Shown here one piece after another: positions 1 through 22,962 of a stretch of 25,923 nt of DNA. The first letter of the stretch is position 1; each line of letters begins with the position of its first letter. The stretch spans positions 1 through 25,923 of the IMG/VR virus record IMGVR_UViG_3300044513_000463. One strand, written 5' to 3'. Origin of the DNA: a virus. Its lineage: Duplodnaviria; Caudoviricetes. The notes under the pieces were generated by a model. It was not told the DNA's origin. It did no database searches and was given only the letters and a program-made list of their open reading frames with translations. The translations under genes were made by a program, and so were the position numbers.

Positions 1-572
1 ACAGAAGCAGAGAATGCTGAATCGTAGTTGATGTCAGACATAGATGCCAATGAAGCAGTTACACAAGAAGCTTCAGCTACAACAGATGATGTAGTGTTGA
101 TAGTGTAACCGAAACGACCAGCACCATAAAGACCTTCAGAAGCGTCATTTGCAGTTTCGGTGATACCGAATACAGAATCAGTTTGTGAGTCTTTACCAGC
201 ACCTGTTTCAAATCCTGGCTGACCAGCAGTACCATACTTGAAATCCAAGTAGAATACAAGACCAGAAGGCAAGTTCATAGGTTGTACAGAAACGAATTCT
301 TTAGCAGCGATTTCGCTGAAAATTCTTCGTACTAATGGAAGAGCGACACCAGCCCACTCTTCAGAGTTTGCAGAAGTACCTGTGCTTGAAGCTTCAGATA
401 CTAATTGTTTTGCTTGGTTTTCCAACAATGTAGCGATACCGGCTCTTTCGAAATCAGCAGTGATTCCTTCTAAAAGACCAGTTTTTTCCCACTTTGAAAC
501 AAGGCCTTTAGCCTCTTCGTTCATTTTCTTGTTGAAACCAGCAGATTCGTTTAATAATGAATTTGTGTTCAT
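1..572 (-). CDS. gp23: Major capsid protein, T4 gp23-like (5' part; runs off the window)
   Basis: Not in the ORF track. Manual translation from ATG at 572 gives MNTNSLLNESAGFNKKMNEEAKGLVSKWEKTGLLEG...LLENQAKQL...LPLVRRIFSEIAAKEFVSVQPMNLPSGLVFYLDFKYG. KW..LLEG, LENQ, LVRR and VQPM..P.GLVF are gp23-family hallmarks. SD-like AAGGA at 581-585. Confidence 0.95.
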   Translation of the reverse strand, partial: MNTNSLLNESAGFNKKMNEEAKGLVSKWEKTGLLEGITADFERAGIATLLENQAKQLVSEASSTGTSANSEEWAGVALPLVRRIFSEIAAKEFVSVQPMNLPSGLVFYLDFKYGTAGQPGFETGAGKDSQTDSVFGITETANDASEGLYGAGRFGYTINTTSSVVAEASCVTASLASMSDINYDSAFSAS

Positions 573-601
573 CTTATTAATCCTTTTCTTTAGGTTTAAA
601 A

Positions 602-1672
602 TTATTTAATTAGACCAGCTAACTTCTTAAATCTATCAGCAACCAAGTTTCCTTCAGAAATAATTTCTTTCTTCGGTGCACTTGACTTCATAGGCTTAGA
701 AGCGAGTGATTCTTTTACAACAGCTTTTGGCTTTTTAGCAACATTCAAGTTCTCACCTAATGTAGCGAATACCAATTTTACTTCTCTCAAAGATGCAGCT
801 CTATCGAAGTTTTCGATGACCTTCATTTTTTGACCTTCGTTCAAATCAAAAGTTCTGAACAACTTGTTAGTGTAAAGAAGTTTAGCATTCAAAAGATTTA
901 CCTCGTTGATAGTGCTTCTCAAAGATTCGATAGTTTTGTATGCTTCTTCCAATTCGGCAGCTGCATCTTCTTCATCTTCTTCTTCGGTTACCACTTCTTC
1001 AACAGCTTCTTCTTCATCAGCCATTTCTTTCAATGTAGCGATGATTTCATCCAAAGATAGTTCTTCATCAAGGTCTTCACCTTCTTCACCTTCTTCACCT
1101 TCTTCGTACATTTCTTCAGTAGCTTCTTCTTCTTCAGATACTTCTTCAGCATCTTCTTCTTCAGAAACTTCTTCAGCTTCTTCATCACCTAAAGCAGCTT
1201 CCAATTCAGCGATTACTGATTCAAGGTCGAGTTCATCTTCCTCTTCATCCATCATCTCTTCTTCTTCAGATACTTCATCATCTTCTGATTCGTAAGTTTC
1301 TTCAACTTCATCTTCTTCAGATACTTCTTCTTCAGAATGCATTTCCTCTTCGTGAGACTCAATTTCATCGGAAGCGATATCAGATACCTCTTCTTCTTCA
1401 TCTGCGTCTAACTCTTCTTCAACTTCATCTTCCATTGAATCTTCAGCAGGCAAATCCATTTCATCTTCTGGGCTCATATCAGTAGCCATAGAATCTTCCA
1501 TTTCATCTTCTACTTCTTCTTCATCATCTAACTCTTCAGCGAGTTTATGAGAAAGCATAGATTGAAGTTTTGGAGTGAATGCCTCTTCGAGAGCCATCTT
1601 TGCGTTTGCTAATGCAGTTTCCTTTACGGCCTTGGCGTCAGCAATTGCTTCTTTTAACAAATCTGATTTCAT
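602..1672 (-). CDS. Prohead core scaffolding protein (gp22-like)
   Basis: 356 aa with a very E/D-rich centre and coiled-coil C-terminus ending RFKKLAGLIK. Lies immediately upstream of the MCP. SD AGGAG at 1680-1684. Confidence 0.8.
   Translation of the reverse strand: MKSDLLKEAIADAKAVKETALANAKMALEEAFTPKLQSMLSHKLAEELDDEEEVEDEMEDSMATDMSPEDEMDLPAEDSMEDEVEEELDADEEEEVSDIASDEIESHEEEMHSEEEVSEEDEVEETYESEDDEVSEEEEMMDEEEDELDLESVIAELEAALGDEEAEEVSEEEDAEEVSEEEEATEEMYEEGEEGEEGEDLDEELSLDEIIATLKEMADEEEAVEEVVTEEEDEEDAAAELEEAYKTIESLRSTINEVNLLNAKLLYTNKLFRTFDLNEGQKMKVIENFDRAASLREVKLVFATLGENLNVAKKPKAVVKESLASKPMKSSAPKKEIISEGNLVADRFKKLAGLIK
1121..1340 (-). repeat. Low-complexity coding repeats (EEVSEEE-like units) in the scaffold
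   Basis: Near-copies of tcttcttcagatacttcttc on the + strand encode EEVSEEE/DEVSEEE. Confidence 0.7.
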
Positions 1673-1702
1673 TTGTTATCTCCTAAATTAACTTTTGGAT
1701 AA

Positions 1703-1769
1703 TAAGATTATTGGGAATCTTAATAGAATATAAATTTCAATAATGTAAATCACTCATTAAGGGAGTGAT
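1703..1769 (-). promoter_or_regulatory. Two 7-bp stem-loops in the leader of the scaffold-MCP transcript
   Basis: taagatt (1703-1709) pairs with aatctta (1716-1722); atcactc (1749-1755) pairs with gagtgat (1763-1769). Both lie between the promoter-like motif at 1777-1786 and the scaffold SD. Confidence 0.5.
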
Positions 1770-1776
1770 ATTTTTC

Positions 1777-1786
1777 TAATAAATAT
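1777..1786 (-). promoter_or_regulatory. Putative late promoter motif (ATATTTATTA)
   Basis: Copy of the recurring sense-strand TATTTAT[AT] motif, upstream of scaffold/MCP. Confidence 0.55.
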
Positions 1787-1820: not shown

Positions 1821-2069
1821 TTAATAGTCTTCTCTTCTTCTACGAACCCAGTCAGCTCTTCGAGCATCGTTCATTTTCTTTCTCTTACGAGTAGTCGGTT
1901 TAGTGTACTCACGATTTTGTTTTACATAGTCAATAATTCCACTATCTTTCATCATTCGTTTCCACTTACGCAGTGCTGCCTCAACATTACCATTGATAAC
2001 CTTCACACCATTTGCGTGACCATAGAGGAATAACTCCTCTCTTTCTTTTCTAACTTTTTGTTCTGCCAT
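1821..2069 (-). CDS. rpsU: Phage-encoded 30S ribosomal protein bS21 homolog
   Basis: 82-aa basic protein with VKV..GNVEAALRKWKRMMKDSGII..VKQNREYTKPTTRKR, matching the bS21 pattern (ALRRFKR...G...R..YEKP...R). Located in the head gene cluster. Confidence 0.88.
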   Translation of the reverse strand: MAEQKVRKEREELFLYGHANGVKVINGNVEAALRKWKRMMKDSGIIDYVKQNREYTKPTTRKRKKMNDARRADWVRRRREDY

Positions 2070-2140: not shown

Positions 2141-3466
2141 TTAATCAAGATAATAATAATCAATATGTTTATCAGATATTAACTTTTGCCTTATTCGTTC
2201 AGATGACATATTAAAATAGGTTGCAGCTTCTTGTATAGAGGTAAATGCCTTACCACCACAACTAATAGTATCAAGCTCAAGTCTTATTTTATTGTCCCAG
2301 GTGGATTCCATTTCAATATAAGATATATTATATTTGGTTGGTTCTGCTAATTTCCAATGCTTCCAATTTTTAGATGATGAATTTATCCAAGTGCGTATCT
2401 GACTTGTTGATACGTTACCATTAAAATACTCGAATATTTGATTTATAGATTGAAATAACACACCATCGATATTGTATTTTATCTGGGGATGTTTAATATC
2501 CCCGATAATGTTCCAATTTCTATATTTATACTTGGTAGACTGACATCTACGTTTCACTTCACTTGCTACAAGTTTGTTTGGTTCTATGTCAATTGCAGCC
2601 TCTCTGAAAGACTTATATTGTTTACCCTCTATATCACACACATATGTACCATCCCATTGTATATCTTCAGTAGCTAAATCAGGATTACCTTTTACAAACA
2701 TCAAAACATTCTGATGGGTTGATGCTACCTTTCTATTACGATTGAAGTATACATTAGACATTCTACCAGATTGTTGTGATGAGTTTATTAGTACCACATC
2801 ATTGTAGTAGTGGAATCCACAATCTTCTGCTATTTGTATTGTAGATGGGACAAACCCCTTATACTTACCAATCTTATAGTTACCAGTAGTAAGTCTATCT
2901 CGTATTTCAGTTACCACAATAATAAAGAACCGATTATCTTTCAGTTTATCATATGACTTTTGAATGATTGATTTGTATTTTGTTAGGAACTCATCCCAAG
3001 ACATATTAGATAGGTCATTGGGATTGTCTGAATATATCTCCAGGTCGTGGTATGGTGGACAGGTGAATATCAAATCGTATTGACTATCTAAAGTGTCTAA
3101 CACCACATCACTATCACCACATATCCAAGTTGGTTTACTTGATTGTAGTTGATTAGCATCTACTTGCTCTTGTGATAATTCTATACCTGTATAGCTAAAA
3201 CCAAGTTCTTCCGCTACTATACCTCTAACCGAACCACCTGCGAATGGGTCAAGGACTGAACCACTTGGTGGTATAAAGGATGTATACATATCCTCACATA
3301 ACTTAGCATCAAATATGGATACTGTCGTATCATCCCAAAACTTTGATGTTGATATTGTATTCTCTCTACCAAGTTCGGATTGAATGCCATACTTTTGTAT
3401 CCACCAACGCTTCCTATCCTGCCACTCCTTTTTTCTTGTATCTAATACTGATAAAATTCCACTCAT
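2141..3466 (-). CDS. Orphan DNA amino-methyltransferase (N4-C/N6-A type) with C-terminal NUMOD1-like HTH repeats
   Basis: SAM-binding LDPFAGGSVRG precedes catalytic TCPPY. Three C-terminal repeats: GKQYKSFREAA, GVLFQSINQIF, GKAFTSIQEAA. ATG at 3466 is preferred over the TTG at 3502, which lies inside a hairpin. Confidence 0.8.
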   Translation of the reverse strand: MSGILSVLDTRKKEWQDRKRWWIQKYGIQSELGRENTISTSKFWDDTTVSIFDAKLCEDMYTSFIPPSGSVLDPFAGGSVRGIVAEELGFSYTGIELSQEQVDANQLQSSKPTWICGDSDVVLDTLDSQYDLIFTCPPYHDLEIYSDNPNDLSNMSWDEFLTKYKSIIQKSYDKLKDNRFFIIVVTEIRDRLTTGNYKIGKYKGFVPSTIQIAEDCGFHYYNDVVLINSSQQSGRMSNVYFNRNRKVASTHQNVLMFVKGNPDLATEDIQWDGTYVCDIEGKQYKSFREAAIDIEPNKLVASEVKRRCQSTKYKYRNWNIIGDIKHPQIKYNIDGVLFQSINQIFEYFNGNVSTSQIRTWINSSSKNWKHWKLAEPTKYNISYIEMESTWDNKIRLELDTISCGGKAFTSIQEAATYFNMSSERIRQKLISDKHIDYYYLD

Positions 3467-3531: not shown

Positions 3532-3954
3532 TTACTCTCCTGGAAAATAGTCCATATTATCGATGTATTTTGATTCAATACTGGCTAAGTTTTTTCTATA
3601 ACCCGTTAACTGTTTTTGATTTTGTTTCATCAGTTCTAATTGAGATTTGGCAGTTTTCATATCACCTTTTGACCGTGCATCAAAGTATGGTTGTGCCAAT
3701 TCCTTCTGCTTTTCTTCAAGTTCTTTTATTTTTTTTATAACAGCTCTATACTTAACATACATTTTTGGAACTCGACTTTCATTAACCGATTCATTAGTAG
3801 TTGATAAATTATCTAAACCTTCTTTAAAATCACCAATTAGATTTCCCAACTCTCTTTGAGTTTTTGGGTCAAGTTTTTTGATGTCTTTAATATGTTGTTT
3901 AATTACTTTAGAAACATCAACTGAAAAGTTTTGTAGGATTCTCATCTTATCCAT
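3532..3954 (-). CDS. Hypothetical two-module protein, probable internal head protein
   Basis: 140 aa; two helical halves joined by TNESVNES. TAATG-coupled to the upstream gene; SD-like TAAGGTG at 3960-3966. Confidence 0.7.
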   Translation of the reverse strand: MDKMRILQNFSVDVSKVIKQHIKDIKKLDPKTQRELGNLIGDFKEGLDNLSTTNESVNESRVPKMYVKYRAVIKKIKELEEKQKELAQPYFDARSKGDMKTAKSQLELMKQNQKQLTGYRKNLASIESKYIDNMDYFPGE

Positions 3955-5273
3955 TACTTCACCTTACCCTTTTCGATATCTCTTTCCAATTCTTGACCAG
4001 CACCGAGTACATATCCCATAGCAGTTTTGATATCAACATTCATATATTTAGCAATCTTTCTAACTGCCATCAGTACGATTCTCTTTTCTTCAGTAGAGTA
4101 TCCTTCGTTTACCGATTCATCAGATTGAATTTCTTCCAAGCTTTTTTTCATCTTGATTAATTTTGATGATGGTAACTCACCAAATCCAAAAGATTCGTTT
4201 AATAATGATTTTAATTTCATTGTGCTTCCTTCGTTTACCGATTGTTCTACTTGTTCAAAATAAAGGTCAGACATAATGTCTTTGAGTTTTGGATTCTTAA
4301 CATCAAAGTTAAACTTTTCCAATGCTCTTCTTGCTTTCAAAGCGTTCTTTACTGGAATTACAAAGTATCCAGCTTTTTCACCACCCATTTTCTTGGCAAG
4401 TTTTGCGGCCTGGTCTTTCATACCCTGACCCATTACATTACCATTCTTTGGATTAACAACCGTGTACTTTGATTCGTTGATTGACTCTTGAATTGATTCC
4501 ATCAATCCGATTGCAGTATCACCAACAACTCTCTCAGCACCATCTGCATATTTGTTATTTAGAATTGCAATCTTAACCGGCTTATCGATTATATACATTG
4601 GTATCATATTAGTACCAAATGAATATTTGATTCCGTTTGATTTCAACTCTTTACCAATATCCATAAATGACTTAGCACCTTTTACGATGTCAGCAAGTTT
4701 GTCTAATATAGCGTCGTGTTTACCTTCGTTAACTGATTCTTTAGCGAAGTCTTTTGCGTTCTCCTTGTCTTCAGCATCTACATCTTTGACTGGAAACTTT
4801 TTACCACCAACTTCAAACTCATCATCACCAGCAGCGATTGCTTTTGCTCTTTCAGCACCAAACTCATTTCCTTCTTTGATTTCGTAGTATTTACCAAGAA
4901 CTTCACCCATCTCATCGTAACAAGACTCAAGTCTTTGTTGTAGGGTGTTTACTTCTTTGATAGTATTAGAGAAAACCTTGAATGATTCGTTCATAGACTT
5001 CATATGTCTATTCACAGTTACTTTGTCAAACCAATCGCCGGTTTCTTCAAGAGTTACTTTGTGTGCAGTCTCTACGATACCTTTGATAGATTCGTATACT
5101 TCAGCCAAGTTACCTGAACGATAGATAGACTCACCAAATTTCTTGTATTCAGAAACTGCCTTGAGGAATTCTCTTTTTTCCTCGTTAGTCATTCCCTTTT
5201 CTTCTTCCTCACCAACATTCATTCTTTTATAAGAAAGGTGTTGAGACTCATTTAGGATATCTTTTAAATTCAT
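3954..5273 (-). CDS. Modular hypothetical protein, probable protease-processed internal head polyprotein
   Basis: 439 aa; leader MNLKDILNE; internal ESVNE, ESINE, QSVNE, LLNE and ESVNE. TAATG-coupled to the prohead protease; GGAG at 5281-5284. Confidence 0.75.
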   Translation of the reverse strand: MNLKDILNESQHLSYKRMNVGEEEEKGMTNEEKREFLKAVSEYKKFGESIYRSGNLAEVYESIKGIVETAHKVTLEETGDWFDKVTVNRHMKSMNESFKVFSNTIKEVNTLQQRLESCYDEMGEVLGKYYEIKEGNEFGAERAKAIAAGDDEFEVGGKKFPVKDVDAEDKENAKDFAKESVNEGKHDAILDKLADIVKGAKSFMDIGKELKSNGIKYSFGTNMIPMYIIDKPVKIAILNNKYADGAERVVGDTAIGLMESIQESINESKYTVVNPKNGNVMGQGMKDQAAKLAKKMGGEKAGYFVIPVKNALKARRALEKFNFDVKNPKLKDIMSDLYFEQVEQSVNEGSTMKLKSLLNESFGFGELPSSKLIKMKKSLEEIQSDESVNEGYSTEEKRIVLMAVRKIAKYMNVDIKTAMGYVLGAGQELERDIEKGKVK

Positions 5274-5914
5274 TATTTTACTCCAAAATCACATTCACAA
5301 TACCCACCAACCTCACAAATGATATCTCTCATTAGGTTGTTAGCTTTTGTGTATTTATAAGTATTCTTTTTTGTTGTAACCGACTCATTAATTACACTTT
5401 CATTTGTTGGAGAAAGAAATGCTCCGTGAGTTGATGGGTTAGAAACAAAGTCCCAACAAATCAAATCAAAGTCTTGTTCTACTGCAACAGTGTCTTCACC
5501 AATTTGTTTTACCGAACCCATACCTCTTGATGAGATACCAACAGTACAACCTGCTTTAATCAACTCTTTGAGGATGTTACCAACCGGAGTGTTTAGAATT
5601 TCAACTACACCAATTACATCATCACCCTTCCAATATACATCACGAACAATATGTGATGTGTTCTTCAATTCTACAACTGAAGATTCTGGATGGTCAAGTT
5701 CACCATATGCTCGGTTCTCTTTGATTTCACGACCTTTGTATTTGGTAACTTCTCTTTCAAGAATGTTTCTTGGATATACACGGCCATTTTGGTTTTTAGC
5801 GTTAGCTCTTTGCAATACGCCACTAACCAAGAGTCTTCCGTGTTTCTCCTGAGCTTCTTGTAACATAGTAGGTGTTACTTCGAATATCATTGTATCAATG
5901 AGAAGTTGTTTCAT
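5273..5914 (-). CDS. gp21: Prohead core protease, T4 gp21-like
   Basis: Motifs NQNGRVYP, GELDHP, GISSRGMGS and DFVSNPS. Start set at ATG 5914 (TAATG overlap; GGGAG at 5920-5924). Confidence 0.93.
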   Translation of the reverse strand: MKQLLIDTMIFEVTPTMLQEAQEKHGRLLVSGVLQRANAKNQNGRVYPRNILEREVTKYKGREIKENRAYGELDHPESSVVELKNTSHIVRDVYWKGDDVIGVVEILNTPVGNILKELIKAGCTVGISSRGMGSVKQIGEDTVAVEQDFDLICWDFVSNPSTHGAFLSPTNESVINESVTTKKNTYKYTKANNLMRDIICEVGGYCECDFGVK

Positions 5915-6055: not shown

Positions 6056-6583
6056 TTATGCACTCAATTCTTTTAATTTGTGAGCAACTTTTAACATTCT
6101 TTCAGAAATCTTTCCAAATCTCTTTTGTGTAGATTTCCAATATTGACCATTATGTACACCAGTCTCGTTCTTCAACTTTGTATTCTGATTAACGATTTTC
6201 TCAACCTCATACATCAATCTATTGATTTCTTTGATTGAGGTGTTAACCTTTTGGTGTGCCTTCATAGAGTCATCGTTCTTGTAATCACGGTAAGTTGCTT
6301 CAATTAGTTTTTCAAGTCTGTCTTCTAATTTCTTCATACTCTTTGACTCCGTATTTATTTTGGTCTTCTTGGCTTTTTTATAACCCAATACTTCAATGTG
6401 GTCTGTATCTAAATCATCCTCATCTTTACTTTTAGAAAAAGCGTTTGGTGTTTTAGGAGGACCAGCACCCCCATCCATATTACCAGTTACATTGGCCTCA
6501 TCAATTTCCTCATCTTGAAGAGTTTCCTTTGCTTCCATCTCTTCAAATTTAGCTTCTAATTGTTCTAATAAAAATTTAGACAT
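6056..6583 (-). CDS. Hypothetical protein, probable prohead core component
   Basis: 175 aa between portal and protease (the T4 gp67/gp68 position). SD TAAGGAG at 6592-6598; 8-nt overlap with the upstream gene. Confidence 0.7.
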   Translation of the reverse strand: MSKFLLEQLEAKFEEMEAKETLQDEEIDEANVTGNMDGGAGPPKTPNAFSKSKDEDDLDTDHIEVLGYKKAKKTKINTESKSMKKLEDRLEKLIEATYRDYKNDDSMKAHQKVNTSIKEINRLMYEVEKIVNQNTKLKNETGVHNGQYWKSTQKRFGKISERMLKVAHKLKELSA

Positions 6584-7421
6584 TTGAAACTCTCCTTAAC
6601 TCTTGTAAAAGTTCGTGGTATCTTAAAAGTGAAAGAATCTGATTTTCGTTGATAACTTTGGAATTAGCAATATTGTCAATAAGGTTGATAGTTTCGTTCA
6701 ACTTGATTGATGCAACTTTATCAGAAATTTTTACTTTTGAGAATTCAGTTTTAATTTTCTTAACCTCTGACATAACAAAAGTTCTCAACTTACCAGAATT
6801 ATCAACATTGTTGATGTAGGTACGAAGAATCTTCTTTTGCGTTTCTGAAAGGTTTGTGTATTTTGAATTAAACGAATCTACCAAGAATTTGTAAGCCAGC
6901 ATACGAACCTCTTTAGGTTGTGATGTGTATTCTTTGTCAGAAGACTCGGTTACGATTTCTACATCAGCTTTAGTGATGGTTTCGAGAATAGTATTTTTAC
7001 AAGTAACATACTCTTTTGGAGATGAAGATTGATTGTATTCAAATAATTTAAATACCGATGCCATCTCACGATAATTTGATACACGATACTTAAAGAAATC
7101 TTCCATAACAAAAGATTCTTTGATTGACTTAATCAAGTTATACTTTTGTCTACGAAGAATTGTTTCGTTCAAACTTACTCTCTCTTGTAGAATGATATTA
7201 ACAAACTCTTGAGCCTTGTATTGTGAATCAAAGTTTTCTTTTGTCAAGGACTGATACAACTTTAACTCTTTGTTAAGTTCAGTTCCTTTTTTAAAGTGTT
7301 TTTTGATAATCTCAAGGGCAAGAGAATCTTTGTTCGCTAATGTATCAGAAGCGATTTGTCGTACAAGTAATTCAAATAAAATACCTGTATTCTTAAATTT
7401 ACTATGTTTAAGTTTAGTCAT
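6576..7421 (-). CDS. Hypothetical helical protein, probable head-morphogenesis protein
   Basis: 281-aa ORF (KHSKFKNTGILFELLVRQI...) directly after portal. No catalytic motif recognised. Confidence 0.7.
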   Translation of the reverse strand: MTKLKHSKFKNTGILFELLVRQIASDTLANKDSLALEIIKKHFKKGTELNKELKLYQSLTKENFDSQYKAQEFVNIILQERVSLNETILRRQKYNLIKSIKESFVMEDFFKYRVSNYREMASVFKLFEYNQSSSPKEYVTCKNTILETITKADVEIVTESSDKEYTSQPKEVRMLAYKFLVDSFNSKYTNLSETQKKILRTYINNVDNSGKLRTFVMSEVKKIKTEFSKVKISDKVASIKLNETINLIDNIANSKVINENQILSLLRYHELLQELRRVSNV

Positions 7422-13805: not shown

Positions 13806-14774
13806 TTATTTAAACTTTTTAATTAGTTTTGATTGAACTGTATTTCCTGGCTTGCCTGCAATTGCTGATACCAATGCCATTCTTTCTGGAAGTTTACCAT
13901 TCTTAACATACTGATATACTTTTTCAATATCCAATTTGTTATCATCAACAAACTTTTGGATTGCGTCTTTGTTCATACCAGTTAGACCACCGATTTCCAT
14001 TGCGGTACGAGATGCAGCTTCGTTTACTGATTCATTCATATATTTCTTCCAATCTTTGTGTTCAGGTGCGAGTGCAGTACGACCCATATTTTTTCTCAAA
14101 TCTTTGTTCTGCTCTCTATTATCTGGATGTGCAATTCTTGATGCAAATTTGTTTTTCATATCCACATAGAAATGTGCGCCAAAATAATCTATGATATAAG
14201 CACCCTCCTTACCTTTGATTGTATCATATTCGTTATGAAGTAATACACCAGGAACTTTCAATCCAATTCCTGAGTGACCCGATACATATTTGATTGGAGT
14301 ATCTCTATATAACTGATAGTAGTTGTGTCCTCTTTGTGGAGTAATCATCTTTTCATCAATACTCTCTTTTTTAGAAAACTTGTCTTTCAATCTCTGAACA
14401 AGTGACTTTGCCTTTCCGTGAGCGGGATGTTGTTTATCCTTCAATGCGGTTGTTACTCTTACATCCTTTTTAGTTTCAGGATTCTTTACCTTTTGGTCAG
14501 CAATTGCCTTAGCGACCATCATATGAACGGCAAAGTTTTCGTTTGTGTTTTCCATTGATTCTCCAGCACATTGTTTCCAACCACCACCGGCGGCTTTATA
14601 TTGTTTAGATGCCCAACCATTTGCGTATGCGGATGGATATACATCAAACTTTTGTTTTGCCTGTGATTTGTAGTAAGACCATTTTGATGGGTTAGTAGGA
14701 CAATTCTTTTCTTCTAATTGTTGAACTTCCTCACCCAATAATCTTAACTCTTCAAGGTATTGTTTGTTATCCAT
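13806..14774 (-). CDS. Modular hypothetical protein
   Basis: About four modules separated by LEE, TNE, ESIDE and ESVNE; the first contains KFDVYPSAYANGW. SD TAAGGAG at 14780-14786 favours ATG 14774 over GTG 14777. Confidence 0.7.
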   Translation of the reverse strand: MDNKQYLEELRLLGEEVQQLEEKNCPTNPSKWSYYKSQAKQKFDVYPSAYANGWASKQYKAAGGGWKQCAGESMENTNENFAVHMMVAKAIADQKVKNPETKKDVRVTTALKDKQHPAHGKAKSLVQRLKDKFSKKESIDEKMITPQRGHNYYQLYRDTPIKYVSGHSGIGLKVPGVLLHNEYDTIKGKEGAYIIDYFGAHFYVDMKNKFASRIAHPDNREQNKDLRKNMGRTALAPEHKDWKKYMNESVNEAASRTAMEIGGLTGMNKDAIQKFVDDNKLDIEKVYQYVKNGKLPERMALVSAIAGKPGNTVQSKLIKKFK

Positions 14775-14783: not shown

Positions 14784-15812
14784 TTAATTGATGTATGCGT
14801 TGAGTTCGTATCCGTTCTTCATACCATATACTTGGATTTGAAGAGACTTACGTTGTGGTTTTCCGCCTTTGAGAAGACCTACCGTAAATTCAGTAGTCTT
14901 ACCTTCACTTGGGCGTGAACGAACATTCTTACCACCCATACCGATTTGAGTTGACCAATCATCTTCATCAACTTCAAATCCTCGTTTTTCTGCGTATTTC
15001 TTTGCAGCGTCTGCGGCTGAAGTAAACGACTTATGATATACTTCGTATTGTGCTTCTTTGAGATATACCGACTCTTTGAAGAGTCTCATACCTTTAGATT
15101 CTACCAATGTCTCTACCTTTTGTCCGAGTGGTCTACCGATAGTCATTGAGATATAGAAACCCATTGCGTTTACGATTTCTTTACCATCCCACTTGCAAAT
15201 GTTTGCAACATCAGGACCCAAGTCGTAATGATACATTTGCTCAAGGTCTTTCTCAGCCATTGGGTCACCTTCATATTTTGCTTTAGGGAACAATTTAGCA
15301 ACACCCTTTGCTTCACTATGGAAGTTAGCATCACTCAAAGCACCCATCAAAATGTGCATTACTGCCCATTGGTGGTTTGCCCCACCTCTTCTTAAATCTT
15401 TAAGGTGTTTGTCTAAAAGTGCTTTAACTTTCTTATTTTCAGCAGGCCCTTCGGTAAGAATACCCTCTACAATGTTTGATAAATTCATATCACTCTCCGT
15501 GTTTTCTAGCATCTTTAATAACTTATCATCTTTGATGACAAATGCGTATCCAGCACCAGTATGGTGTGGGTCACTCTCAAAGTCGAGACCCGTTTTCTTT
15601 TTTAAATGAGTTATTGTCAAGATTCTAAAATCCTCATCAGCCAATCTTGGATTTCCAAATGCATCCATAATATCATCGATAGTATCTAAATCTTTTGATG
15701 ATTTTGCAATTAGAATAATTCTACCATTTTTAAATGATGTCATAAATTCGACTCTACCATTTTTGTAGTCAAATTTAGCTTTACCTTCTGATAACAACGA
15801 TGTCAATCTCAT
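14784..15812 (-). CDS. Modular hypothetical protein
   Basis: 342 aa; leader MRLTSLLSE; internal MNLSNIVEGILTE and MRLFKESVYLKE. ATGA overlap with the upstream gene. Confidence 0.7.
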   Translation of the reverse strand: MRLTSLLSEGKAKFDYKNGRVEFMTSFKNGRIILIAKSSKDLDTIDDIMDAFGNPRLADEDFRILTITHLKKKTGLDFESDPHHTGAGYAFVIKDDKLLKMLENTESDMNLSNIVEGILTEGPAENKKVKALLDKHLKDLRRGGANHQWAVMHILMGALSDANFHSEAKGVAKLFPKAKYEGDPMAEKDLEQMYHYDLGPDVANICKWDGKEIVNAMGFYISMTIGRPLGQKVETLVESKGMRLFKESVYLKEAQYEVYHKSFTSAADAAKKYAEKRGFEVDEDDWSTQIGMGGKNVRSRPSEGKTTEFTVGLLKGGKPQRKSLQIQVYGMKNGYELNAYIN

Positions 15813-16390
15813 TCTTCGGTCTCCAATTGTTGGATAAAGTTTTCTCTAAACATACGAAACTCATTTTCTATCTTTTCTTCCATCTCTTCCCAAGACATAC
15901 CATCCCATTCTTCAAACGAACCATCTTCGTTGATATATCGGGCTTTGATAGCCAGTTTAAGAGCTTCTTTCTCAAGTTCGGCCTGTTTTAACCAAGCCTT
16001 ACCATTATTCAATAATTTCTCTCGTTCATATTGTTCAAATTTACCCTCAATCTTTAATTGGTGTTCCATATCGATTACACAATCAAAGCACATACCGTGG
16101 ATGAATTTCATCTTTAGGTCGTTTCTATTTGGGCTTGTACAAGTACAAACTTCTTTTTGACATTTGGGGAATGTGTTGATTTCATTTCTCAACTCTGAAA
16201 GTTTACCAAGTTTGACTTTGTATCCTTTCTTTTGTTCCCAAATGTTTCCCTCATCATCAGTCCATTGGTCACCAACTTCCCTTTTGATAAAGTCCTTACC
16301 CTCCCCAAAAGCAACAGTGTTTTTGGTTTGAGTTCGGTGATTTCCAGCAATCATTTCTTTGACTGCCTTAATATTTTGTAATTTTGACAT
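15809..16390 (-). CDS. Hypothetical protein with a Cys cluster (possible Zn binding)
   Basis: 193 aa; CQKEVCTC...HGMCFDC followed by a charged helical region. Confidence 0.65.
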   Translation of the reverse strand: MSKLQNIKAVKEMIAGNHRTQTKNTVAFGEGKDFIKREVGDQWTDDEGNIWEQKKGYKVKLGKLSELRNEINTFPKCQKEVCTCTSPNRNDLKMKFIHGMCFDCVIDMEHQLKIEGKFEQYEREKLLNNGKAWLKQAELEKEALKLAIKARYINEDGSFEEWDGMSWEEMEEKIENEFRMFRENFIQQLETEE

Positions 16391-16424: not shown

Positions 16425-18716
16425 TTAAAAATACATTAAACCCAAGATTTGGTTGAGTGACGCAAATGTACCTGTAAGTTTCATAGTGTATCCTTTATAT
16501 GCAAATACAATACCCTCGTTTGGTACGATTTTGTTTCTACCACCAACTGCGTTTAATCTTTCTAATTCCATTTTTAATTTTTCAATCTTCTTTGGGTCAC
16601 CCGACTTCTTAACATCTTTGATTGTTTGGTCAAGTCTCTTTTGCATATCTCTCAATGCTTTGTCTGGGTTAACCGTTAATGCTGATGACATAAATGATAG
16701 AACCTCAGCACCAACACCCAAGAAGATATCTTCGAACTTGCGTGTGTTTTCTTTGGCTATCTTTGCTTGGTCAATTTTGTCAGTCTTCTTGGCCCAATCT
16801 AATGTTTTATTATCAGTAATGTTTTTTGAATCTAATCGGAAACCTTTATCGTAGAATGCCCATCTTTTTACCAATCCCATTTTGGTTTTGTTATCTAATG
16901 TAGATGGGGAATTCTTATCAACATATTCTTCCCACCATCTTTGATGATATTCAGCAACACCATCACTATCCTTGAGTTTGAACTCTTTCTGAACTTTTGA
17001 TAATTGCCCAAAGAACTTTGACTTTAGTTTGGATAGTTCTTGATTTTGTGGAAGTTTAACAACAGGTGGTCCTTGGATTGTATACTTGGATTGTACATCT
17101 GCGTTCACTTGTTTAATCATCCCAGCAAGAATCTTTGCGTCAGAAGTGTCAGCACCAATTGCCTCACCCTTTTCATTATATTCCATAGTTCCGTGGAATA
17201 CTAATAGGGGTTGACCATATGGTACTACGTTTACTGACTCCGGCCAGATGACTTCAATGTTCATAAATTTTGAACCAGATTTGAAGACTTTTTCTTTTTG
17301 TGCATCTGATAGTTTTGAGATTGCGTTACTCAAATCTTTCATTGCAAAGTTATACGCATCGGTCAACCCACCTCTATTAGCAAACTTATCTGAAACACCT
17401 TTAATGTCTAATGCGTTAAGTCCTCTATCCTTGAGGTGAGATTTATTTCTTGCAGCGATGATACCTCTATCTTTTCTATATGAGATAGCGAGTGCCTGTC
17501 CATCTGTTTTTTCTCTTGTGAATTCTAACTTACCATTGAGTGCATTGTCAATGATGATTTTTAAATCACCAAAGGTCAATCCCAATTCAGTATCGAATGG
17601 GTGGTTCATATGACCATATGCACCACCTTCATTAAGAACACCTTCTTTAAGGTTATTCTTTTTTGCCTTTTGCTTTTCAGTATCAATTTTTGGAGTAAGA
17701 TTATCAAGTTCTTTTGGTTCAACAAACTTAACGAACTCCATACCTAAACGAAGGGCAACTCTCTTAATGTGTTTTGCCCATTTAGCATAACCGGGACGGC
17801 CCGTGATGTCTTTACCATATCGTTTAGTTTGTCCATCCATTGTGTCGCCAGTTGGGAAGAATGATACACCCAATCGGCCAGGTCCTTTGGGATATGTAGT
17901 ATCGATAAACGATTCCATAGAATCATCATCCATTAGGTATGATACGATTTCCCAGCCCAATCGTTCAGTAACATCTTCAGCTTCTTTTTTGAAGGTATTC
18001 ATATTACCATAGAAAGCACCCGGCCCATCATCCACAATACCCTTACCACTTGTCGGAATAGAGGATGCTTCATTAATTAGTTCGTTCATATCAAATGTCT
18101 GAAGGAATGACTCCATTACGGACTCTACCTTAGCAATACGACCTGAAACTAAATCAAAAATCTTTTGGTTAAACTTTGGGTATACTTTCTTGAAGAATTT
18201 AACTCGTTCTTGCTCATCTGGATTTGACATACCTTTACGAACTTCGGTGCCGGATATACCATTACCTTGAGATGGGGCTGCGTAGACATACCCACCATCT
18301 TTCATAGAAATACTCGCATCACCCTTATATGGTCTGAAGTATTTACCACCCAATCGATTTTTATCCTTCTCACCAACTACCGTAATAAATGCGGTGGTAT
18401 CCTCATCAAATTTACCAAGAATTTCTTTTGGAGCATATGGGTTCTTTACTTGGACAATCCTATCTTTTGGAATACCAAACATCGTGTTCATAATCTGAAC
18501 CTTCTCCTTGAAACGGAATGGTGACTTTGGTAATTCTACTTTATCAGATGTTCCAATGTATACGTTTTCCTTACCAAACTTTTTAACCAAATGTTGGTAT
18601 GTTGCGTTATGACCCGAATGGAATGGATGAAACCTTCCTACATAGGTTACGACTGTTTTTTTGATGTCTTCAGTAAGGATTGATTCCGTTACCCATTCTT
18701 TTATTAATTGTCCCAT
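16425..18716 (-). CDS. HxGH cytidylyltransferase-like domain fused to a KxDG ATP-dependent ligase-like domain
   Basis: N-terminus: YVGRFHPFHSGH, VVGEKD, ISGTEVR. C-terminus from about 17627: EKTDGQ (motif I), ARNK, NIEVI, EGIVF (motif IV), MKLTG (motif V). Confidence 0.7.
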   Translation of the reverse strand: MGQLIKEWVTESILTEDIKKTVVTYVGRFHPFHSGHNATYQHLVKKFGKENVYIGTSDKVELPKSPFRFKEKVQIMNTMFGIPKDRIVQVKNPYAPKEILGKFDEDTTAFITVVGEKDKNRLGGKYFRPYKGDASISMKDGGYVYAAPSQGNGISGTEVRKGMSNPDEQERVKFFKKVYPKFNQKIFDLVSGRIAKVESVMESFLQTFDMNELINEASSIPTSGKGIVDDGPGAFYGNMNTFKKEAEDVTERLGWEIVSYLMDDDSMESFIDTTYPKGPGRLGVSFFPTGDTMDGQTKRYGKDITGRPGYAKWAKHIKRVALRLGMEFVKFVEPKELDNLTPKIDTEKQKAKKNNLKEGVLNEGGAYGHMNHPFDTELGLTFGDLKIIIDNALNGKLEFTREKTDGQALAISYRKDRGIIAARNKSHLKDRGLNALDIKGVSDKFANRGGLTDAYNFAMKDLSNAISKLSDAQKEKVFKSGSKFMNIEVIWPESVNVVPYGQPLLVFHGTMEYNEKGEAIGADTSDAKILAGMIKQVNADVQSKYTIQGPPVVKLPQNQELSKLKSKFFGQLSKVQKEFKLKDSDGVAEYHQRWWEEYVDKNSPSTLDNKTKMGLVKRWAFYDKGFRLDSKNITDNKTLDWAKKTDKIDQAKIAKENTRKFEDIFLGVGAEVLSFMSSALTVNPDKALRDMQKRLDQTIKDVKKSGDPKKIEKLKMELERLNAVGGRNKIVPNEGIVFAYKGYTMKLTGTFASLNQILGLMYF

Positions 18717-18724: not shown

Positions 18725-21700
18725 TTATCCTTGACTCTGACTTAACTGAAGTTTTAATTGATTTACTTCATTAGAAAGTTCTTGTATTGCTTTAATCATT
18801 GGTGAGATTAACTCAGCATATCGTAATCCCATCATAGAGCCGGTGGTTAGACCTGCGAAATCTAAAGTGGTTTTACCAACACCGGATAGAGATGAACTTA
18901 CTTCTTGTGCAATCAATCCGTAGTGTGTTCGTGTCTTACCAATCCAAGTGTAACTTACAGGTCGTAATGAATTTACAAATGTAAGGCCTAAATCAGATTC
19001 AACTATATTTTCTTTTTGATTTATATCCGAGGTTTGAATTGTGCCATTTGTAGCATATACATCATCCCATCGTGTTATTTTTAAACCACTACCAACATTG
19101 TCACCTTGTCCTAAATCATATACGTTATCACGGCCAGGAATAAGATTACCAAAGTGTGCAGTACCAAATTTAGTTGGAGCAAGTGCGGATTGTTCAAATT
19201 GTAATCCTTTTACAAACATACCTTCAGTAGATGCGGCTTTTAAAATTCGCAATTCAGCGATTCTAATATCATCTAAACTCGTAGAACCACCAGCCGCACC
19301 ATACCGATACCATTCTAATTTTATTCGGAAAGTTTGTCTTATGTTATATTGGTTACCAGCAAGGTATATTAAAGCATCTGTAAATGGGACTGATATTGGT
19401 AACCACTCACCTGCGTTTTGAGATGATATTTCAAATCTCTTTAACACGTTATTTGAGGTGTCTAATATCTCGACTCTAAATGTAGGTTGGAAACCACCAT
19501 ACGATTGGCCGATTCTAACTGCAGTTTGTAATACCAATCCGTTTATGTTTTCGGTAGATAGTAATGAAGATGGTATTGTTATATTCTCACTACGAATCCA
19601 ATAACTATAATTAGCACCCACGGATGCTACTGATGGAAATCTAAACACAACATTTTCAACCGTAGCATCGGTTGTATATTCTTCAGGATACCCATATGGT
19701 AATCCCTGTACCGAAATTCCATCATAACCCTTGATATCTGCCCAGCGTTTAAATGTAGGTGGTTCGGTGTTTTGAGTGTCATTCACACTCAATGCCTTGG
19801 TGTATTTTGATGCAGATATTGTTGTACCTATGAATGGATATGATGACATTCCCGAACCACTACCAACAGTCCAAGTATAATTACCATACGATATTGTTTG
19901 GCCAACATTTCCAATGTCAACTTTCGAGCCACCATAGAAATATGATGATGTAATATATGCGGATGAAGTTACCCACGACTCTAACAAATATTCATTGCTA
20001 CTATTTTTAGCGATTGTACCCACTACTTGTACATCATCAAAACGACCCAACTCTGCAATGATATTACCATCAATCTTTGCATCAGATGCTGTGATTTGTC
20101 CGTTTGCTTTTAATATAAGATTATCATTTGATGAATTGATTTGAGTTTCTGATACTTCAAAACCACCAATACTTGCAGATACAAATTTAGCAAAACCATC
20201 AGAGGTAATAGATGCCGATGCATTTGCAAGGGTAGATGGTGAACCACCAATTGTAGCGGGTGTAGTAAGTTGGTCAACTGCAAGGTCACCACGAACCGTC
20301 ATTGTACCATCTACATATTGTACATAGTTGTCAGTTGTCTTATCACCAAGTAGGATTGCCGAACCCGTTAATTCACCACTATCTCTTAAAATCAAATTGT
20401 TGTTTGAAGATGAGATGGTTGTGGAGTCAATTGAGAACCCACCAATCTCACCGAATGTTGCAATGATACCACCTTGAAGGAATACATTGTCAGTAGCAAG
20501 GCCAAAGCCAGGATTGGACCTATTGAATACTTTATTAGTATTTGCAAGTCCACTCAAATCGCCAAGTCTGGCTTTCAACTCAACATCATAAGTTCCACTA
20601 CCAGTTCTCTCAACAATATCAATGTATGGTGTTGATTGGTCGTTTGGATTTGCATTCATACGAATATAACCAGTACCAACTTTACCAGTAGAAACGATTA
20701 CTTGACTTTCTTCGTAATCTTGTGCGTTTGACCCAGTATCACCTACAAATGTATTTCCAGGAGTAGCACCACCAGTGTATCCACGTTCTACATAAATCTT
20801 ACCTGATATTGAATTTGGGTCTGACCCATCACCATCAAGTGATGATGATTCTATTAACACATATTCAGTTGTAAACCCGGTGTCAGAAATCTTTTTGATT
20901 TGTAATACTTCTCCGGCAGAAAACCCACTTGCATTTGCTACGGACATTGTAGTTTCCGATGCAAGTACACTTGACCCTGTAATTGTGGTTGAGTTGGCAA
21001 CAAATAATTGCCCACCAACTGCGTTTACACTTTCTTTCTCAAATGTGGTTGTTGCAAGTGTACCTCTAATCTTAACATTTTCAAATTCAGCTCTACCAGT
21101 TTCATCAATAATCCAACCTTTAAGGTTTGATACATAATCTTTGGTTTGAATTCTACCCGCCGAATTAATTTCTAAATTAGAACTAAAAATAGATGATGTG
21201 TTTACATTCCACCCACCAATACTTGCAGATACAAATCGGGCAAGTCCTTCCGAGGTGATAGATGAACTTGCGTTCAAATCAGTAGATTGTACACCACCAA
21301 TCGTGGCAGGAGTTCTAATATTATTTGCAGATAAGTCTGCTTCGATGATAGCATTTGCGCCAATAACCAATCTATCGTTTACAGGGTCTAAATGGAATAA
21401 AGATGAACTGATTTCAATGTTACCATCCGAACCACTTACAAATTGAGAATCGGATGTACCAATAAAGAATTTATCAGTTTTAACATCTAACAAGCCACCA
21501 TTTGCGGTTGTGAAGATGAGGTGTCTATCATCATTATCTCCAACAAACTGCATACCCACACCTTGTAAAACATCGGCGCCCATTTGCAATCCATTACTAC
21601 CACTATATATAATGAATCCACCTGGTCCAATACCCAATGATGCTGAAGTTACACCTTCATATCCAACTGATTTTAAGAAACCACTCGAATGACCACCCAT

Positions 21701-22942
21701 TTCAAGACCACTGCCAATTGCGTTTGCAATAAACAACGAACCGGTTACGATTGACTGATTACCACCAATGTATACGTTACCACCAGGGAACACAACATTC
21801 TTAATGATTGTTTCGGTTTTTGATACTTGACCTTGTTGGTTTAAGAATTGTACCTTTAGGGTCTTTACATCGTTGAGGTGTTCCGTTGGGATTGAAACAC
21901 GATATGTAAATGTTGTATCTTGATTTACTTTTGTATTTCCAACAAATTCAAAATCACCACCCGCGCCTTCGGATTTAATCAAAGTGTTTACCGAAGCAAT
22001 ACGACCCGTTTCTGGATTAACATTTGTAAGTGTTATATTTGCAAATGATATTTGGTTTTGGGTTGTTACCGTAGAAGCACTTGTAAAATATCTAATGTTT
22101 GCTGTTAATGCGTCACCATCTGAATATTCGTAGGTGTGTACTGACCCATCACTTCTACCATCACTTGATGTGAATGGTGAAGTTAATCTCAAGATTGTAG
22201 TTGAGTCTACATCTTTAATACTTGCTGTAAATGTTGTTGGTTGTGCTTGTCCTGTCAATCGTGGGAATAGTGTTGAATTACCAACATCTAAATAGATACT
22301 TCCGCTAATCATCTCGGAGTTGAAGGTGTTACCACTCTGCCACTCCAATGATGTTGTAGTTCCCCAAACCGATTTCTTATACTTTACATTTGTAGAGGTG
22401 TCAATCTCTCTTAATTCACCATTGGATTGTGGTAAGTTATTTACAACTTGAATTGAAGCAGATACACTACCCTTTGGTAAAACACTTGATTTAAATACAA
22501 TTTTTGATGGAGCCAGTTGTTGAATATCAATAGGAACTTTACGAGTCCATCTAACATTTGGCCTATCTCTAAACTCATCAGGTACATCTCGTGCAGTACC
22601 AACAATGATTACCTCACCGATGCCCGGCGCTGTATCGTGTCTATCACCACGGCCGGTATAAGTCCAAACTGAAATGATAATGGTGTCATCCGAGTTCTTT
22701 ATTGTAGAGAACTCATAATACATTGGCTTTCCGGCTTGGTCTAAAACCTCAACTTGAATTGGTGTATTTTCTTGTAACCTATCACGATTACCTTTTAGTC
22801 TTATCAATGACTTACCATCACCAAAGAATTCAGGAAACTCCACAATAGAAAAATACTCCGGAGACATATCCGAAGTATCCTCTATGAATACTCTTAAATT
22901 TTTGAGATTTTCTTTTGCTCTTCTTTTAAGTTCCAATGCCAT
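18725..22942 (-). CDS. Large virion protein, tail fibre/spike-like, with C-terminal intramolecular chaperone (peptidase S74)
   Basis: 1405 aa, G/S/T-rich beta repeats. C-terminal TIQTSDINQKENI...LRPVSYTW...HYGLIAQEV...LRYAELISPMIKAIQEL plus a coiled coil. SD AGGAG at 22950-22954. Confidence 0.8.
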   Translation of the reverse strand: MALELKRRAKENLKNLRVFIEDTSDMSPEYFSIVEFPEFFGDGKSLIRLKGNRDRLQENTPIQVEVLDQAGKPMYYEFSTIKNSDDTIIISVWTYTGRGDRHDTAPGIGEVIIVGTARDVPDEFRDRPNVRWTRKVPIDIQQLAPSKIVFKSSVLPKGSVSASIQVVNNLPQSNGELREIDTSTNVKYKKSVWGTTTSLEWQSGNTFNSEMISGSIYLDVGNSTLFPRLTGQAQPTTFTASIKDVDSTTILRLTSPFTSSDGRSDGSVHTYEYSDGDALTANIRYFTSASTVTTQNQISFANITLTNVNPETGRIASVNTLIKSEGAGGDFEFVGNTKVNQDTTFTYRVSIPTEHLNDVKTLKVQFLNQQGQVSKTETIIKNVVFPGGNVYIGGNQSIVTGSLFIANAIGSGLEMGGHSSGFLKSVGYEGVTSASLGIGPGGFIIYSGSNGLQMGADVLQGVGMQFVGDNDDRHLIFTTANGGLLDVKTDKFFIGTSDSQFVSGSDGNIEISSSLFHLDPVNDRLVIGANAIIEADLSANNIRTPATIGGVQSTDLNASSSITSEGLARFVSASIGGWNVNTSSIFSSNLEINSAGRIQTKDYVSNLKGWIIDETGRAEFENVKIRGTLATTTFEKESVNAVGGQLFVANSTTITGSSVLASETTMSVANASGFSAGEVLQIKKISDTGFTTEYVLIESSSLDGDGSDPNSISGKIYVERGYTGGATPGNTFVGDTGSNAQDYEESQVIVSTGKVGTGYIRMNANPNDQSTPYIDIVERTGSGTYDVELKARLGDLSGLANTNKVFNRSNPGFGLATDNVFLQGGIIATFGEIGGFSIDSTTISSSNNNLILRDSGELTGSAILLGDKTTDNYVQYVDGTMTVRGDLAVDQLTTPATIGGSPSTLANASASITSDGFAKFVSASIGGFEVSETQINSSNDNLILKANGQITASDAKIDGNIIAELGRFDDVQVVGTIAKNSSNEYLLESWVTSSAYITSSYFYGGSKVDIGNVGQTISYGNYTWTVGSGSGMSSYPFIGTTISASKYTKALSVNDTQNTEPPTFKRWADIKGYDGISVQGLPYGYPEEYTTDATVENVVFRFPSVASVGANYSYWIRSENITIPSSLLSTENINGLVLQTAVRIGQSYGGFQPTFRVEILDTSNNVLKRFEISSQNAGEWLPISVPFTDALIYLAGNQYNIRQTFRIKLEWYRYGAAGGSTSLDDIRIAELRILKAASTEGMFVKGLQFEQSALAPTKFGTAHFGNLIPGRDNVYDLGQGDNVGSGLKITRWDDVYATNGTIQTSDINQKENIVESDLGLTFVNSLRPVSYTWIGKTRTHYGLIAQEVSSSLSGVGKTTLDFAGLTTGSMMGLRYAELISPMIKAIQELSNEVNQLKLQLSQSQG

Positions 22943-22962
22943 TAATGGACTCCTGCCGTTTC

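Follow-up and report, generated by a model that had tools for sequence, protein, structure and literature searches.

bS21 is described as the commonest ribosomal protein encoded by phages, with a job that is given as unknown (PMC9723584, PMC9976891). Bacteroidota ribosomes normally disregard Shine-Dalgarno (SD) start signals. A known basis for a role is the sequestration of the anti-Shine-Dalgarno (anti-SD) sequence by bS21, bS18, and bS6 (PMC7797042). Autoregulation of rpsU in Flavobacterium johnsoniae shows that whether Bacteroidia ribosomes use SDs depends on their bS21 status; this circuit works through the absence of bS21 and a single extended SD of 13 bp, located on rpsU (PMC7797042, PMC9976891, PMC13000457). 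SD reporters go up on bS21 mutation, and bS21 loss gives the weak AGGA no gain (PMC9976891). Among phages, the freshwater Bacteroidetes myophages of clades a–e (Chen et al. 2022) carry bS21 inside a T4-like TerL-portal-protease-MCP region, and for them a Bacteroidetes host, late expression, and ribosome substitution were proposed. In their genomes of 293–331 kb, bS21 is encoded on the reverse strand, with the portal and prohead protease genes on either side; the protein is Flavobacteriia-like with an aromatic residue at 54, and a function like that of its host counterpart was proposed. We found no analysis of SDs on phage genes in the main text (PMC9723584). The rpS21 of huge phages (Al-Shayeb et al. 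2020) has a basic and aromatic N-terminal extension and was predicted to substitute for the host protein; the SD analysis described in that paper concerns rpS1, not bS21 or gene classes (PMC7162821). No published report of a phage bS21 paired with SD-led virion genes was found in a search that covered supplements in part.

We analyzed a stretch of 25,923 nt from a tailed phage (the window), in which all genes described below lie on the minus strand. Homology and synteny of TerL, portal, gp21, and MCP to Immutovirus (51–57% identity for the close relative G004) identify it as the head module of an Immutovirus-like, T4-like phage; for this 26-kb fragment the likeness is, on these comparisons, one of family level rather than genus membership. 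The cultured Immutovirus (Flavobacterium phage vB_FspM_immuto_2-6A, NC_055915; hereafter immuto) has a syntenic head module, the same late motif, leader hairpins, and early promoter type, but no bS21. The window shares with clades a–e the position of bS21 inside the head region, as well as the likely Bacteroidota host, probable late expression, and proposed ribosome substitution. In contrast to theirs, its bS21 is on the same strand as its neighbors, between the protease block and scaffold, and is divergent, with Arg at 54 and, like the huge-phage proteins, a basic and aromatic N-terminal extension; its relatives have genomes of about 175 kb (178 kb for a complete close relative) and SD-led virion genes. 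Neither strand and slot nor residue 54 and genome size thus place it in those clades, and the loci found with the Chen gene order are SD-less. Unlike the F. johnsoniae circuit, the window combines many short SDs upstream of virion genes with the presence of a bS21 whose own gene is SD-less. A cultured relative, Microcystis phage Mel-JY01 (PP395634), has bS21 in the same slot and SD-led virion genes; it differs in an AAGGA SD on its own bS21, weak SDs on many non-virion genes, and a cyanobacterium as deposited host.

Anti-SD pairing energy was computed for 21 window leaders with a 13-nt anti-SD tail, and an SD was called at ≤−5 or ≤−4 kcal/mol. Genes are named below by their start coordinate where they lack another name. 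An earlier note on this DNA had listed ten SD-like strings at a spacing of 5–8 nt; all are present, and nine score ≤−5 kcal/mol. They precede the gp23-like MCP (1..572, cut by the window end; Pfam PF07068; AAGGA 581–585, −5.6 kcal/mol), an acidic protein that appears to be the scaffold from its position and homology to the immuto pre-MCP gene (602..1672; AGGAG 1680–1684, −7.3), a putative head-internal protein, so labeled from position and an xNES motif (3532..3954; TAAGGTG 3960–3966, −11.7), a putative head-internal polyprotein with seven (I/L/V)xE motifs (3954..5273; GGAG 5281–5284, −5.9), prohead protease gp21 (5273..5914; PF03420; GGGAG 5920–5924, −7.3), a conserved head-module protein (6056..6583; TAAGGAG 6592–6598, −8.5), two more putative head-internal proteins (13806..14774; TAAGGAG 14780–14786, −7.7; and 14784..15812, with an N-terminal LLSE motif; GGAG 15821–15824, −6.4), and a tail fibre with an S74 chaperone (18725..22942; AGGAG 22950–22954, −6.9; late motif 22965–22971). 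The tenth, on the conserved head-module homolog of immuto gp073 (6576..7421; TAAGGT 7427–7432; late motif 7452–7458), is marginal at −3.8 kcal/mol.

Nine genes had been named SD-less, and eight of them score above −3: bS21 (1821..2069, 82 aa; PF01165; PHROG 21469), a DNA methyltransferase with a weak I-TevI-like tail (2141..3466; with a TATATTA motif of host type 13 nt ahead of its ATG), the T4-like portal (7471..9321; PF07230; late motif 9361–9367), TerL (9395..10966; PF03237; 57% to Immutovirus TerL), 12122, 13123 (DUF6734; late motif only 21 nt upstream), 13804, and the conserved gene 16390 (15809..16390). The ninth, a cytidylyltransferase-like gene (16425..18716), was misassigned; it has AAGGA 11 nt upstream (18728–18732, −5.0), and three of four distinct relative leaders also reach ≤−4. 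Genes 11377 and 11645 (membrane or signal-peptide, putatively spanin-like), absent from the earlier lists, are SD-less as well; together with 12122, 13123, and 13804 they fill 10973..13804. The ranking was unchanged with two other 13-nt tails, and an 8-nt core lowered MCP and 18716 to −3.8.

Leaders at ≤−5 make up 10/21 in the window versus 17.9% of 604 other minus-strand ATGs (binomial p = 1.7e-3), a level reached by 0/400 leader shuffles; at ≤−4 the enrichment is weaker (p = 0.025; 1/400 shuffles). Most phage SDs are weak and short: on this scale AGGA is −4.0 and AGGAGGU −11.4 kcal/mol, and only 1/21 window leaders reaches the latter. Within the window's clade, SDs are conserved on MCP (15/15), scaffold (9/9), gp21 (20/21), and 6583 (26/27), and are rare or absent on bS21 (0/13), 16390 (0/9), 12122 (0/8), portal (3/31), and terminase (5/34). 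Portal and terminase are head genes yet SD-less, so the division first proposed, head genes versus others, does not hold; the window is split into abundant virion genes with SDs and low-copy genes without. A division into early and late genes fails too, since nearly all of the window sits behind a late-type motif, and of the nine TATTTAT motifs within the first 23 kb, eight coincide with or closely precede a gene start, SD-less genes included. Module classes derived from immuto gave no split (5/9 versus 4/7) because they count the primase-to-TerL block as non-virion. With classes set by the nearest promoter motif, SDs were found on 48/95 versus 17/71 genes in G004 and on 9/14 versus 0/4 in the window, the latter count leaving out bS21, 11645, and the cut MCP.

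The earlier note had proposed computing anti-SD energies genome-wide by gene class, and in relatives this revealed SDs enriched on virion over replication genes (≤−4 kcal/mol; internal-ATG background 20%–32%). In G004, a complete 178-kb relative whose TerL is 90% identical to the window's, SDs precede 19/24 virion versus 3/17 replication genes (MWU 1.1e-5). The corresponding counts are 19/24 versus 4/17 in G001, 16/19 versus 6/17 in G035, 14/23 versus 4/13 in G034, 14/23 versus 0/14 in G031, and 17/24 versus 3/12 in Mel-JY01; the two classes differ little or not at all in G036 (30/37 versus 37/59, p = 0.07) and G032 (8/34 versus 9/31, p = 0.78). A G enrichment peak at −11..−7 marks virion genes of G004 and G001, not those of immuto or the bS21-less G025. 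SD strength declines with the copy number of the virion protein: it is highest for tube (12/12), MCP (15/16), and sheath (10/12) and lowest for tape measure (3/11) and TerL (6/15). Genomes lacking bS21 have few virion SDs (immuto 3/21, G025 0/16, G013 1/15, G011 0/7), and only 5/209 called immuto genes score ≤−5; that relatives without bS21, the cultured Flavobacterium phage included, almost lack SDs agrees with the earlier proposal.

Across loci, SD-rich ones (at least 30% SD leaders) account for 60/60 with bS21 versus 0/32 without, where 27 of the 32 belong to one clade and independent contrasts number two pairs on well-supported branches (four on all; sign test p = 0.5). MCP is SD-led in 46/48 versus 0/19 and scaffold in 46/53 versus 0/32. 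Four apparent exceptions turned out to contain bS21, and in the immuto clade it is absent from 6/6 records at least 90% complete. The window's scaffold/MCP leader (1673..1785) comprises a late motif (1779–1785), two conserved hairpins, and then the SD segment; at the homologous scaffold leader end, most bS21-encoding phages have AGGAG, and bS21-less phages are G-poor. A phage bS21 is not by itself a predictor of SDs, because seven loci with a host-like, reverse-strand Tyr54 bS21 have 0/23 SD head leaders, and the head genes of LR756508 are SD-less too.

The window protein matches the bS21 profile PF01165 (E 1e-10, 41.6 bits versus a cut-off of 27). Its predicted structure (pLDDT 84) has helices at 29–43, 45–51, and 58–81, a helical fold with the KP(S/T) motif; the top 17 of 20 listed Foldseek matches are small-subunit ribosome chains, none reaching E ≤ 0.001. 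Arg71 occupies the column of host Tyr54, with Trp74 three residues on; Tyr54 is present in 11/11 parsed host proteins, a set that leaves out two non-Bacteroidia host bS21. The C-terminal part is basic (pI 11.6 versus 6.2–10.4 in the 11 host proteins), and the protein thus has neither the Tyr54 nor the less basic C-terminal part of anti-SD-masking Bacteroidia bS21. The N-terminal extension is 17 residues long, and one of 7–43 aa is found in 54/54 parsed bS21 of SD-rich loci. Loss of Tyr54 is neither necessary for SD use, as Tyr is kept in 4/54 of these proteins and in the L526-L553 group, nor sufficient, as the bS21 of LR756508 is non-Tyr54 and encoded before scaffold, yet its head genes are SD-less. 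The earlier suggestion that phage bS21 frees the anti-SD fits the window protein, which lacks Tyr54, but is too simple if it rests on this residue.

On balance, we think it probable, though far from secure, that phage bS21 replaces the host protein and lets SDs work on abundant virion genes in a Bacteroidota host. Ahead of bS21, a TATTTAT late-type motif (2122–2128) is followed by a terminator-like hairpin (2091–2121) and a T run, which likely make bS21 its own late unit. Judging from this motif, bS21 would be made late from an SD-less message and would take the place of host bS21 on the 30S subunit, where short SD–anti-SD helices could then form and promote the translation of capsid, scaffold, and tail proteins. 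As the phage SDs are mostly short, phage bS21 is likely to act by more than the loss of Tyr54. It probably aids the helix in the way that bS21 of SD-using bacteria does; the N-terminal extension and the basic C-terminal helix are candidates for the parts responsible. The earlier idea of an SD-less bS21 that starts the switch suits the window and its clade (0/13) but is not general, because a weak SD precedes 11/54 of the related bS21 genes. More tentatively, and with somewhat less confidence than doubt, we envisage two bS21 types in Bacteroidota phages: an anti-SD-locking host mimic (reverse-strand, Tyr54, SD-less genomes) and an N-extended, SD-reprogramming type that would open a phage-private initiation channel, SD strength setting virion stoichiometry.

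The host, which the earlier note had left to be assigned, is likely a member of the Bacteroidota, on evidence drawn from G004 rather than the window. G004 has a T9SS sorting domain (tail), a DUF4494 homolog, Bacteroidota-like genes, and −33/−7 promoters of Bacteroidota type. Its bipartite TTG...TATATTAG promoter motif is that of immuto (TTG 23/41 in G004, 34/43 in immuto; controls 5 and 4). TAnnTTTG is described as the Bacteroidota promoter consensus (PMC10309648). The best 20 TIGR03643 matches include 12 from Bacteroidota and three from Ignavibacteria.

An unlikely alternative, the best-surviving one, is that lineages with bS21 infect a partly SD-reading host of the FCB group or elsewhere, SDs simply marking highly expressed genes and bS21 being inherited along as a passenger or aiding translation in general. 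The small number of independent contrasts leaves room for it, Ignavibacteria are reported at 32% SD (PMC10783764), and in G036 no upstream TTG element is present (0/20) and both ssb and recA are led by strong SDs. Mel-JY01, the only cultured bS21-encoding relative found, is deposited as a Microcystis phage and shows the G peak in non-virion genes too, but it also carries a DUF4494 homolog and TATATTTG motifs; a search for a paper on it gave none among the matches listed. Against a host effect, replication genes of the window's clade stay at background, highly expressed ones included (G004 ssb −2.4, nrdA −1.7), and the clade's early promoter matches that of the cultured Flavobacterium phage.

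We consider it more doubtful still that the phage depletes or displaces host bS21 by another route (shut-off, protease, anti-SD-binding RNA), so that SDs are read by subunits devoid of bS21 and the phage protein does no more than restore the platform. Strong SDs are indeed read by ribosomes lacking bS21 (PMC9976891, PMC13000457), Tyr54-keeping phage bS21s co-occur with SDs, relatives encode a ClpP-like protease, and McNutt et al. speculated on a phage exchange factor; however, weak SDs, which most of the phage's are, go unused by bS21-free ribosomes, SDs are missing wherever this bS21 lineage is absent, and our analysis identified no depleting or displacing factor. That the purine motifs merely reflect translational coupling, re-initiation, mRNA protection, or coding, with ribosome specificity unchanged, is very improbable: four SDs (3954, 5273, 6583, 15812) do lie inside an upstream coding end, but the MCP, scaffold, gp21, 7421, 14774, and tail starts are 9–148 nt from the upstream stop, SD spacing is canonical, and in immuto the genes are coupled in the same order yet have no SDs.

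If phage bS21 does let SDs work on virion genes, one small viral protein would switch the start-site code of the host ribosome. Such a switch would be a clear-cut example of specialised ribosomes made by a virus and might serve to control expression in Bacteroidota. The SD pattern gives a concrete prediction for the existing F. johnsoniae genetic system of SD and SD-less reporters and rpsU alleles, with natural controls in the cultured bS21-less, SD-less relative, the host-like bS21s of SD-less phages, and the Tyr54-keeping bS21s of SD-led phages.

Some minor observations complete the picture. A sigma-70 scan was at chance level (23 versus 25.8), and no tRNA genes were found in the window. One metatranscriptome contained 5% of words; contigs of relatives give neither level nor strand. 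An association of early-promoter bS21 with SDs on replication genes was seen in G036 only; G037, G038, and G044 have two to three replication markers each. Gene 13804, SD-less in the window, is SD-led in four of six relatives.

All genes of the 25.9-kb phage fragment lie on the minus strand. Pfam matches identify bS21 (1821–2069), the major capsid protein (MCP), a methyltransferase, gp21 protease, T4-like portal, terminase and tail fibre, as well as domains suggesting an SbcCD-like nuclease. To score Shine-Dalgarno (SD) strength, we calculated the duplex energy of bases −18 to −4 with a 13-nt anti-SD tail of 16S rRNA. The ten SD-like strings of an earlier note were all present at 5–8 nt spacing. 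Ten of 21 window leaders reached ≤−5 kcal/mol compared with 17.9% of 604 other ATGs (p = 1.7 × 10−3), a count equalled by none of 400 leader shuffles. At gene level the earlier lists needed adjustment: gene 7421, assigned an SD, is marginal (−3.8 kcal/mol), 18716, called SD-less, has AAGGA (−5.0 kcal/mol), and 11377 and 11645 join the SD-less genes. Per-gene SD status is conserved in the window's clade (SD-led distinct leaders: MCP, 15/15; scaffold, 9/9; bS21, 0/13; portal, 3/31; terminase, 5/34). A split into head and other genes does not hold, since portal and terminase are SD-less head genes. Because, in addition, a late-type TATTTAT motif precedes SD-led and SD-less genes alike, bS21 among them, we infer that the split separates abundant virion genes from low-copy or non-virion ones.

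The nearest cultured terminases (57%) are those of Flavobacterium phage vB_FspM_immuto_2-6A (immuto), which lacks bS21, and of "Microcystis phage" Mel-JY01, the only cultured bS21-containing member found. G004 is a complete 178-kb relative with direct terminal repeats (TerL 90%, bS21 85% versus the window). Whole genomes were called without regard to SDs, taking the most upstream ATG and ATG only, so some called starts are wrong. With module classes transferred from immuto and SDs scored at ≤−4, the classes differed in G004 (27/36 versus 34/118, p = 1.3 × 10−6) and in a second relative, G001 (31/40 versus 22/112), but not in G036 (p = 0.07) or G032 (p = 0.78). With function-defined panels, picked after the G004 SD track was known, anti-SD pairing favored virion over replication genes in G004 (19/24 versus 3/17), G001 (19/24 versus 4/17), G035 (16/19 versus 6/17), G034 (14/23 versus 4/13), G031 (14/23 versus 0/14), and Mel-JY01 (17/24 versus 3/12). 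The corresponding virion and replication counts in bS21-less genomes were 3/21 and 2/12 for immuto and 0/16 and 1/10 for G025. Internal ATGs score 20%–32%, so replication genes are close to background. Across 16 bS21-containing records, SDs were most frequent on tube (12/12), MCP (15/16), and sheath (10/12) genes and least frequent on tape measure (3/11) and TerL (6/15).

Co-occurrence was counted in 92 of 169 loci with distinct gp21, leaving out 75 fragments that neither held bS21 nor spanned its slot and two that were too short. At least 30% of leaders carried SDs in 60/60 bS21+ loci versus 0/32 bS21− loci (1/32 at 25%); MCP was SD-led in 46/48 versus 0/19. Four SD-rich loci at first scored bS21− proved to contain bS21 when whole records were searched, and such searches found none in 6/6 immuto-clade records at least 90% complete. 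The scaffold leader is homologous family-wide, its last bases being AGGAG in most bS21+ phages and G-poor in bS21− ones. Independence is the weak point: 27/32 bS21− loci form a single clade, the five beyond it are fragments, and the two traits changed four times each, with two pairs on supported branches (p = 0.5).

The window bS21 has 17 additional N-terminal residues, a more basic C-terminal part (pI 11.6 versus 6.2–10.4 in host proteins), and Arg71 in the column of F. johnsoniae Tyr54, which is Tyr in 11/11 parsed host proteins. In SD-rich loci, each of the 54 bS21 that could be parsed is extended by 7–43 residues; position 54 is R in 36, K in 11, Y in 4, and other in 3, and 11/54 genes have their own weak SD. 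Among the best 80 of 159 matches to a host-like bS21, at least seven distinct loci are arranged as Chen et al. described, with bS21 reversed, portal and protease either side, and Tyr54. Six of these seven proteins lack the extension, one has an upstream in-frame ATG, and SDs were found in 0/23 of their head leaders. This SD-less state divides the phage bS21 proteins into two types. Scaffold and MCP have strong SDs in a same-strand group whose bS21 combines the extension with Tyr or Phe at position 54. The bS21 of LR756508 lacks Tyr54 and the extension, and the head genes there are SD-less. Hence the pattern is explained neither by bS21 presence, given the reverse-strand loci and LR756508, nor by Tyr54 loss, given the Tyr/Phe group and LR756508. 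The extension tracks the pattern best, though it is confounded with descent.

In published work, bS21, bS18, and bS6 conceal the anti-SD of Bacteroidia ribosomes (PMC7797042), bS21 Y54A, truncation, or depletion raises strong-SD but not weak AGGA reporters (PMC9976891), and the V of bS21 holds the SD helix in most bacteria (PMC13000457). Of the 21 window leaders, only one matches the strong-SD reporter in strength, so passive unmasking is likely insufficient. We favor, with moderate confidence, a replacement in which phage bS21 would take the place of host bS21 on the ribosome and would then support short SD helices. The pattern is real and this mechanism plausible. Substitution by phage bS21 was proposed by Chen et al., 2022 (PMC9723584) and Al-Shayeb et al., 2020 (PMC7162821), whose available portions make no link to virion SDs; "phage" does not occur in the main text of PMC13000453, and a search largely confined to non-subscription titles found no paper tying phage bS21 to SD-led virion genes.

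A host that itself tolerates SDs is an unlikely source of the pattern. In G004 and G001, non-virion genes lie downstream of TTG...TATATTAG; the TTG part is present at 23/41 sites in G004 (control, 5) and 23/35 in G001 (control, 3), comparable with immuto (34/43), and the motif resembles the Bacteroidetes TAnnTTTG element (PMC10309648). G004 also encodes a T9SS-tail protein, a DUF4494 homolog, and a TIGR03643 protein, the best 20 matches of which, in a scan covering 600 stretches, comprise 12 Bacteroidota, 3 Ignavibacteria, 3 cyanobacteria, and 2 others. Against a probable Bacteroidota host stand the deposited host of Mel-JY01 (Microcystis) and G036, where the TTG element is missing and ssb and recA carry strong SDs; the host argument draws on relatives' promoter motifs and gene content. 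Mel-JY01 (PP395634, L138–L141) resembles Immutovirus and carries Bacteroidota-type motifs as well as a DUF4494 homolog, and a Bacteroidota companion in the culture may be its true host. Unmasking of the anti-SD by another route seems rather improbable, and that the purine motifs reflect coupling or are a by-product is very doubtful.

In the G036 clade (L252, L253, L261, L266, L267, L271, and L274), a TATATT host-type motif, not the late motif, precedes bS21, possibly marking an early-acting variant. Many non-virion genes of G004 and relatives, e.g., helicase and primase, have the TATATTAG-type motif close to the ATG (10–18 nt before it in 11/29 cases) and are predicted to yield leaderless or near-leaderless early mRNAs. 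At 2091–2128 (minus strand) the late motif adjoins a terminator-like hairpin whose stem varies among relatives with pairing retained; this element likely ends read-through and begins a separate bS21 message. The scaffold/MCP leader (1673–1785, minus strand) folds into two hairpins with loops ending AAU, retained in an alignment of 24 bS21+ relatives despite changes in the stems and also discernible in bS21-less immuto-clade leaders, a possible RNA-stability element or translational operator.

The methyltransferase (2141–3479, minus strand), with its weak I-TevI-like C terminus, is likely a mobile insert; its gene has its own host-type motif 13 nt ahead of the ATG and a low GC content, and only three distinct relative leaders were found for it. 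Repeated (I/L/V)NE(S/G)-type motifs, which agree with the gp21 cleavage rule, occur in 3954–5273, 14784–15812, 16425–18716, and 13148–13804, whose products are likely head-internal cargo proteins. At 11646–11950, gene 12122 encodes four copies of a basic low-complexity repeat (GAKSSGSGAG).

Residues 19–69 of the window bS21 give a gapless alignment with mitochondrial bS21m, and its fold search is led by mitoribosomal chains, with weak scores; the N-terminal extension is possibly convergent. The bS21 frames of L232, L284, L288, and L290 lack an ATG ahead of the conserved part and likely use GTG or other non-ATG starts. Flagellimonas loci L466, L472, and L473 hold three bS21 paralogs, all with Tyr54 and only one with an extended SD (−13.1). 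The 735-kb phage LR756501 (L559) has an SD-led sheath gene and a host-like Tyr54 bS21 whose own leader contains a strong SD (−11.8).
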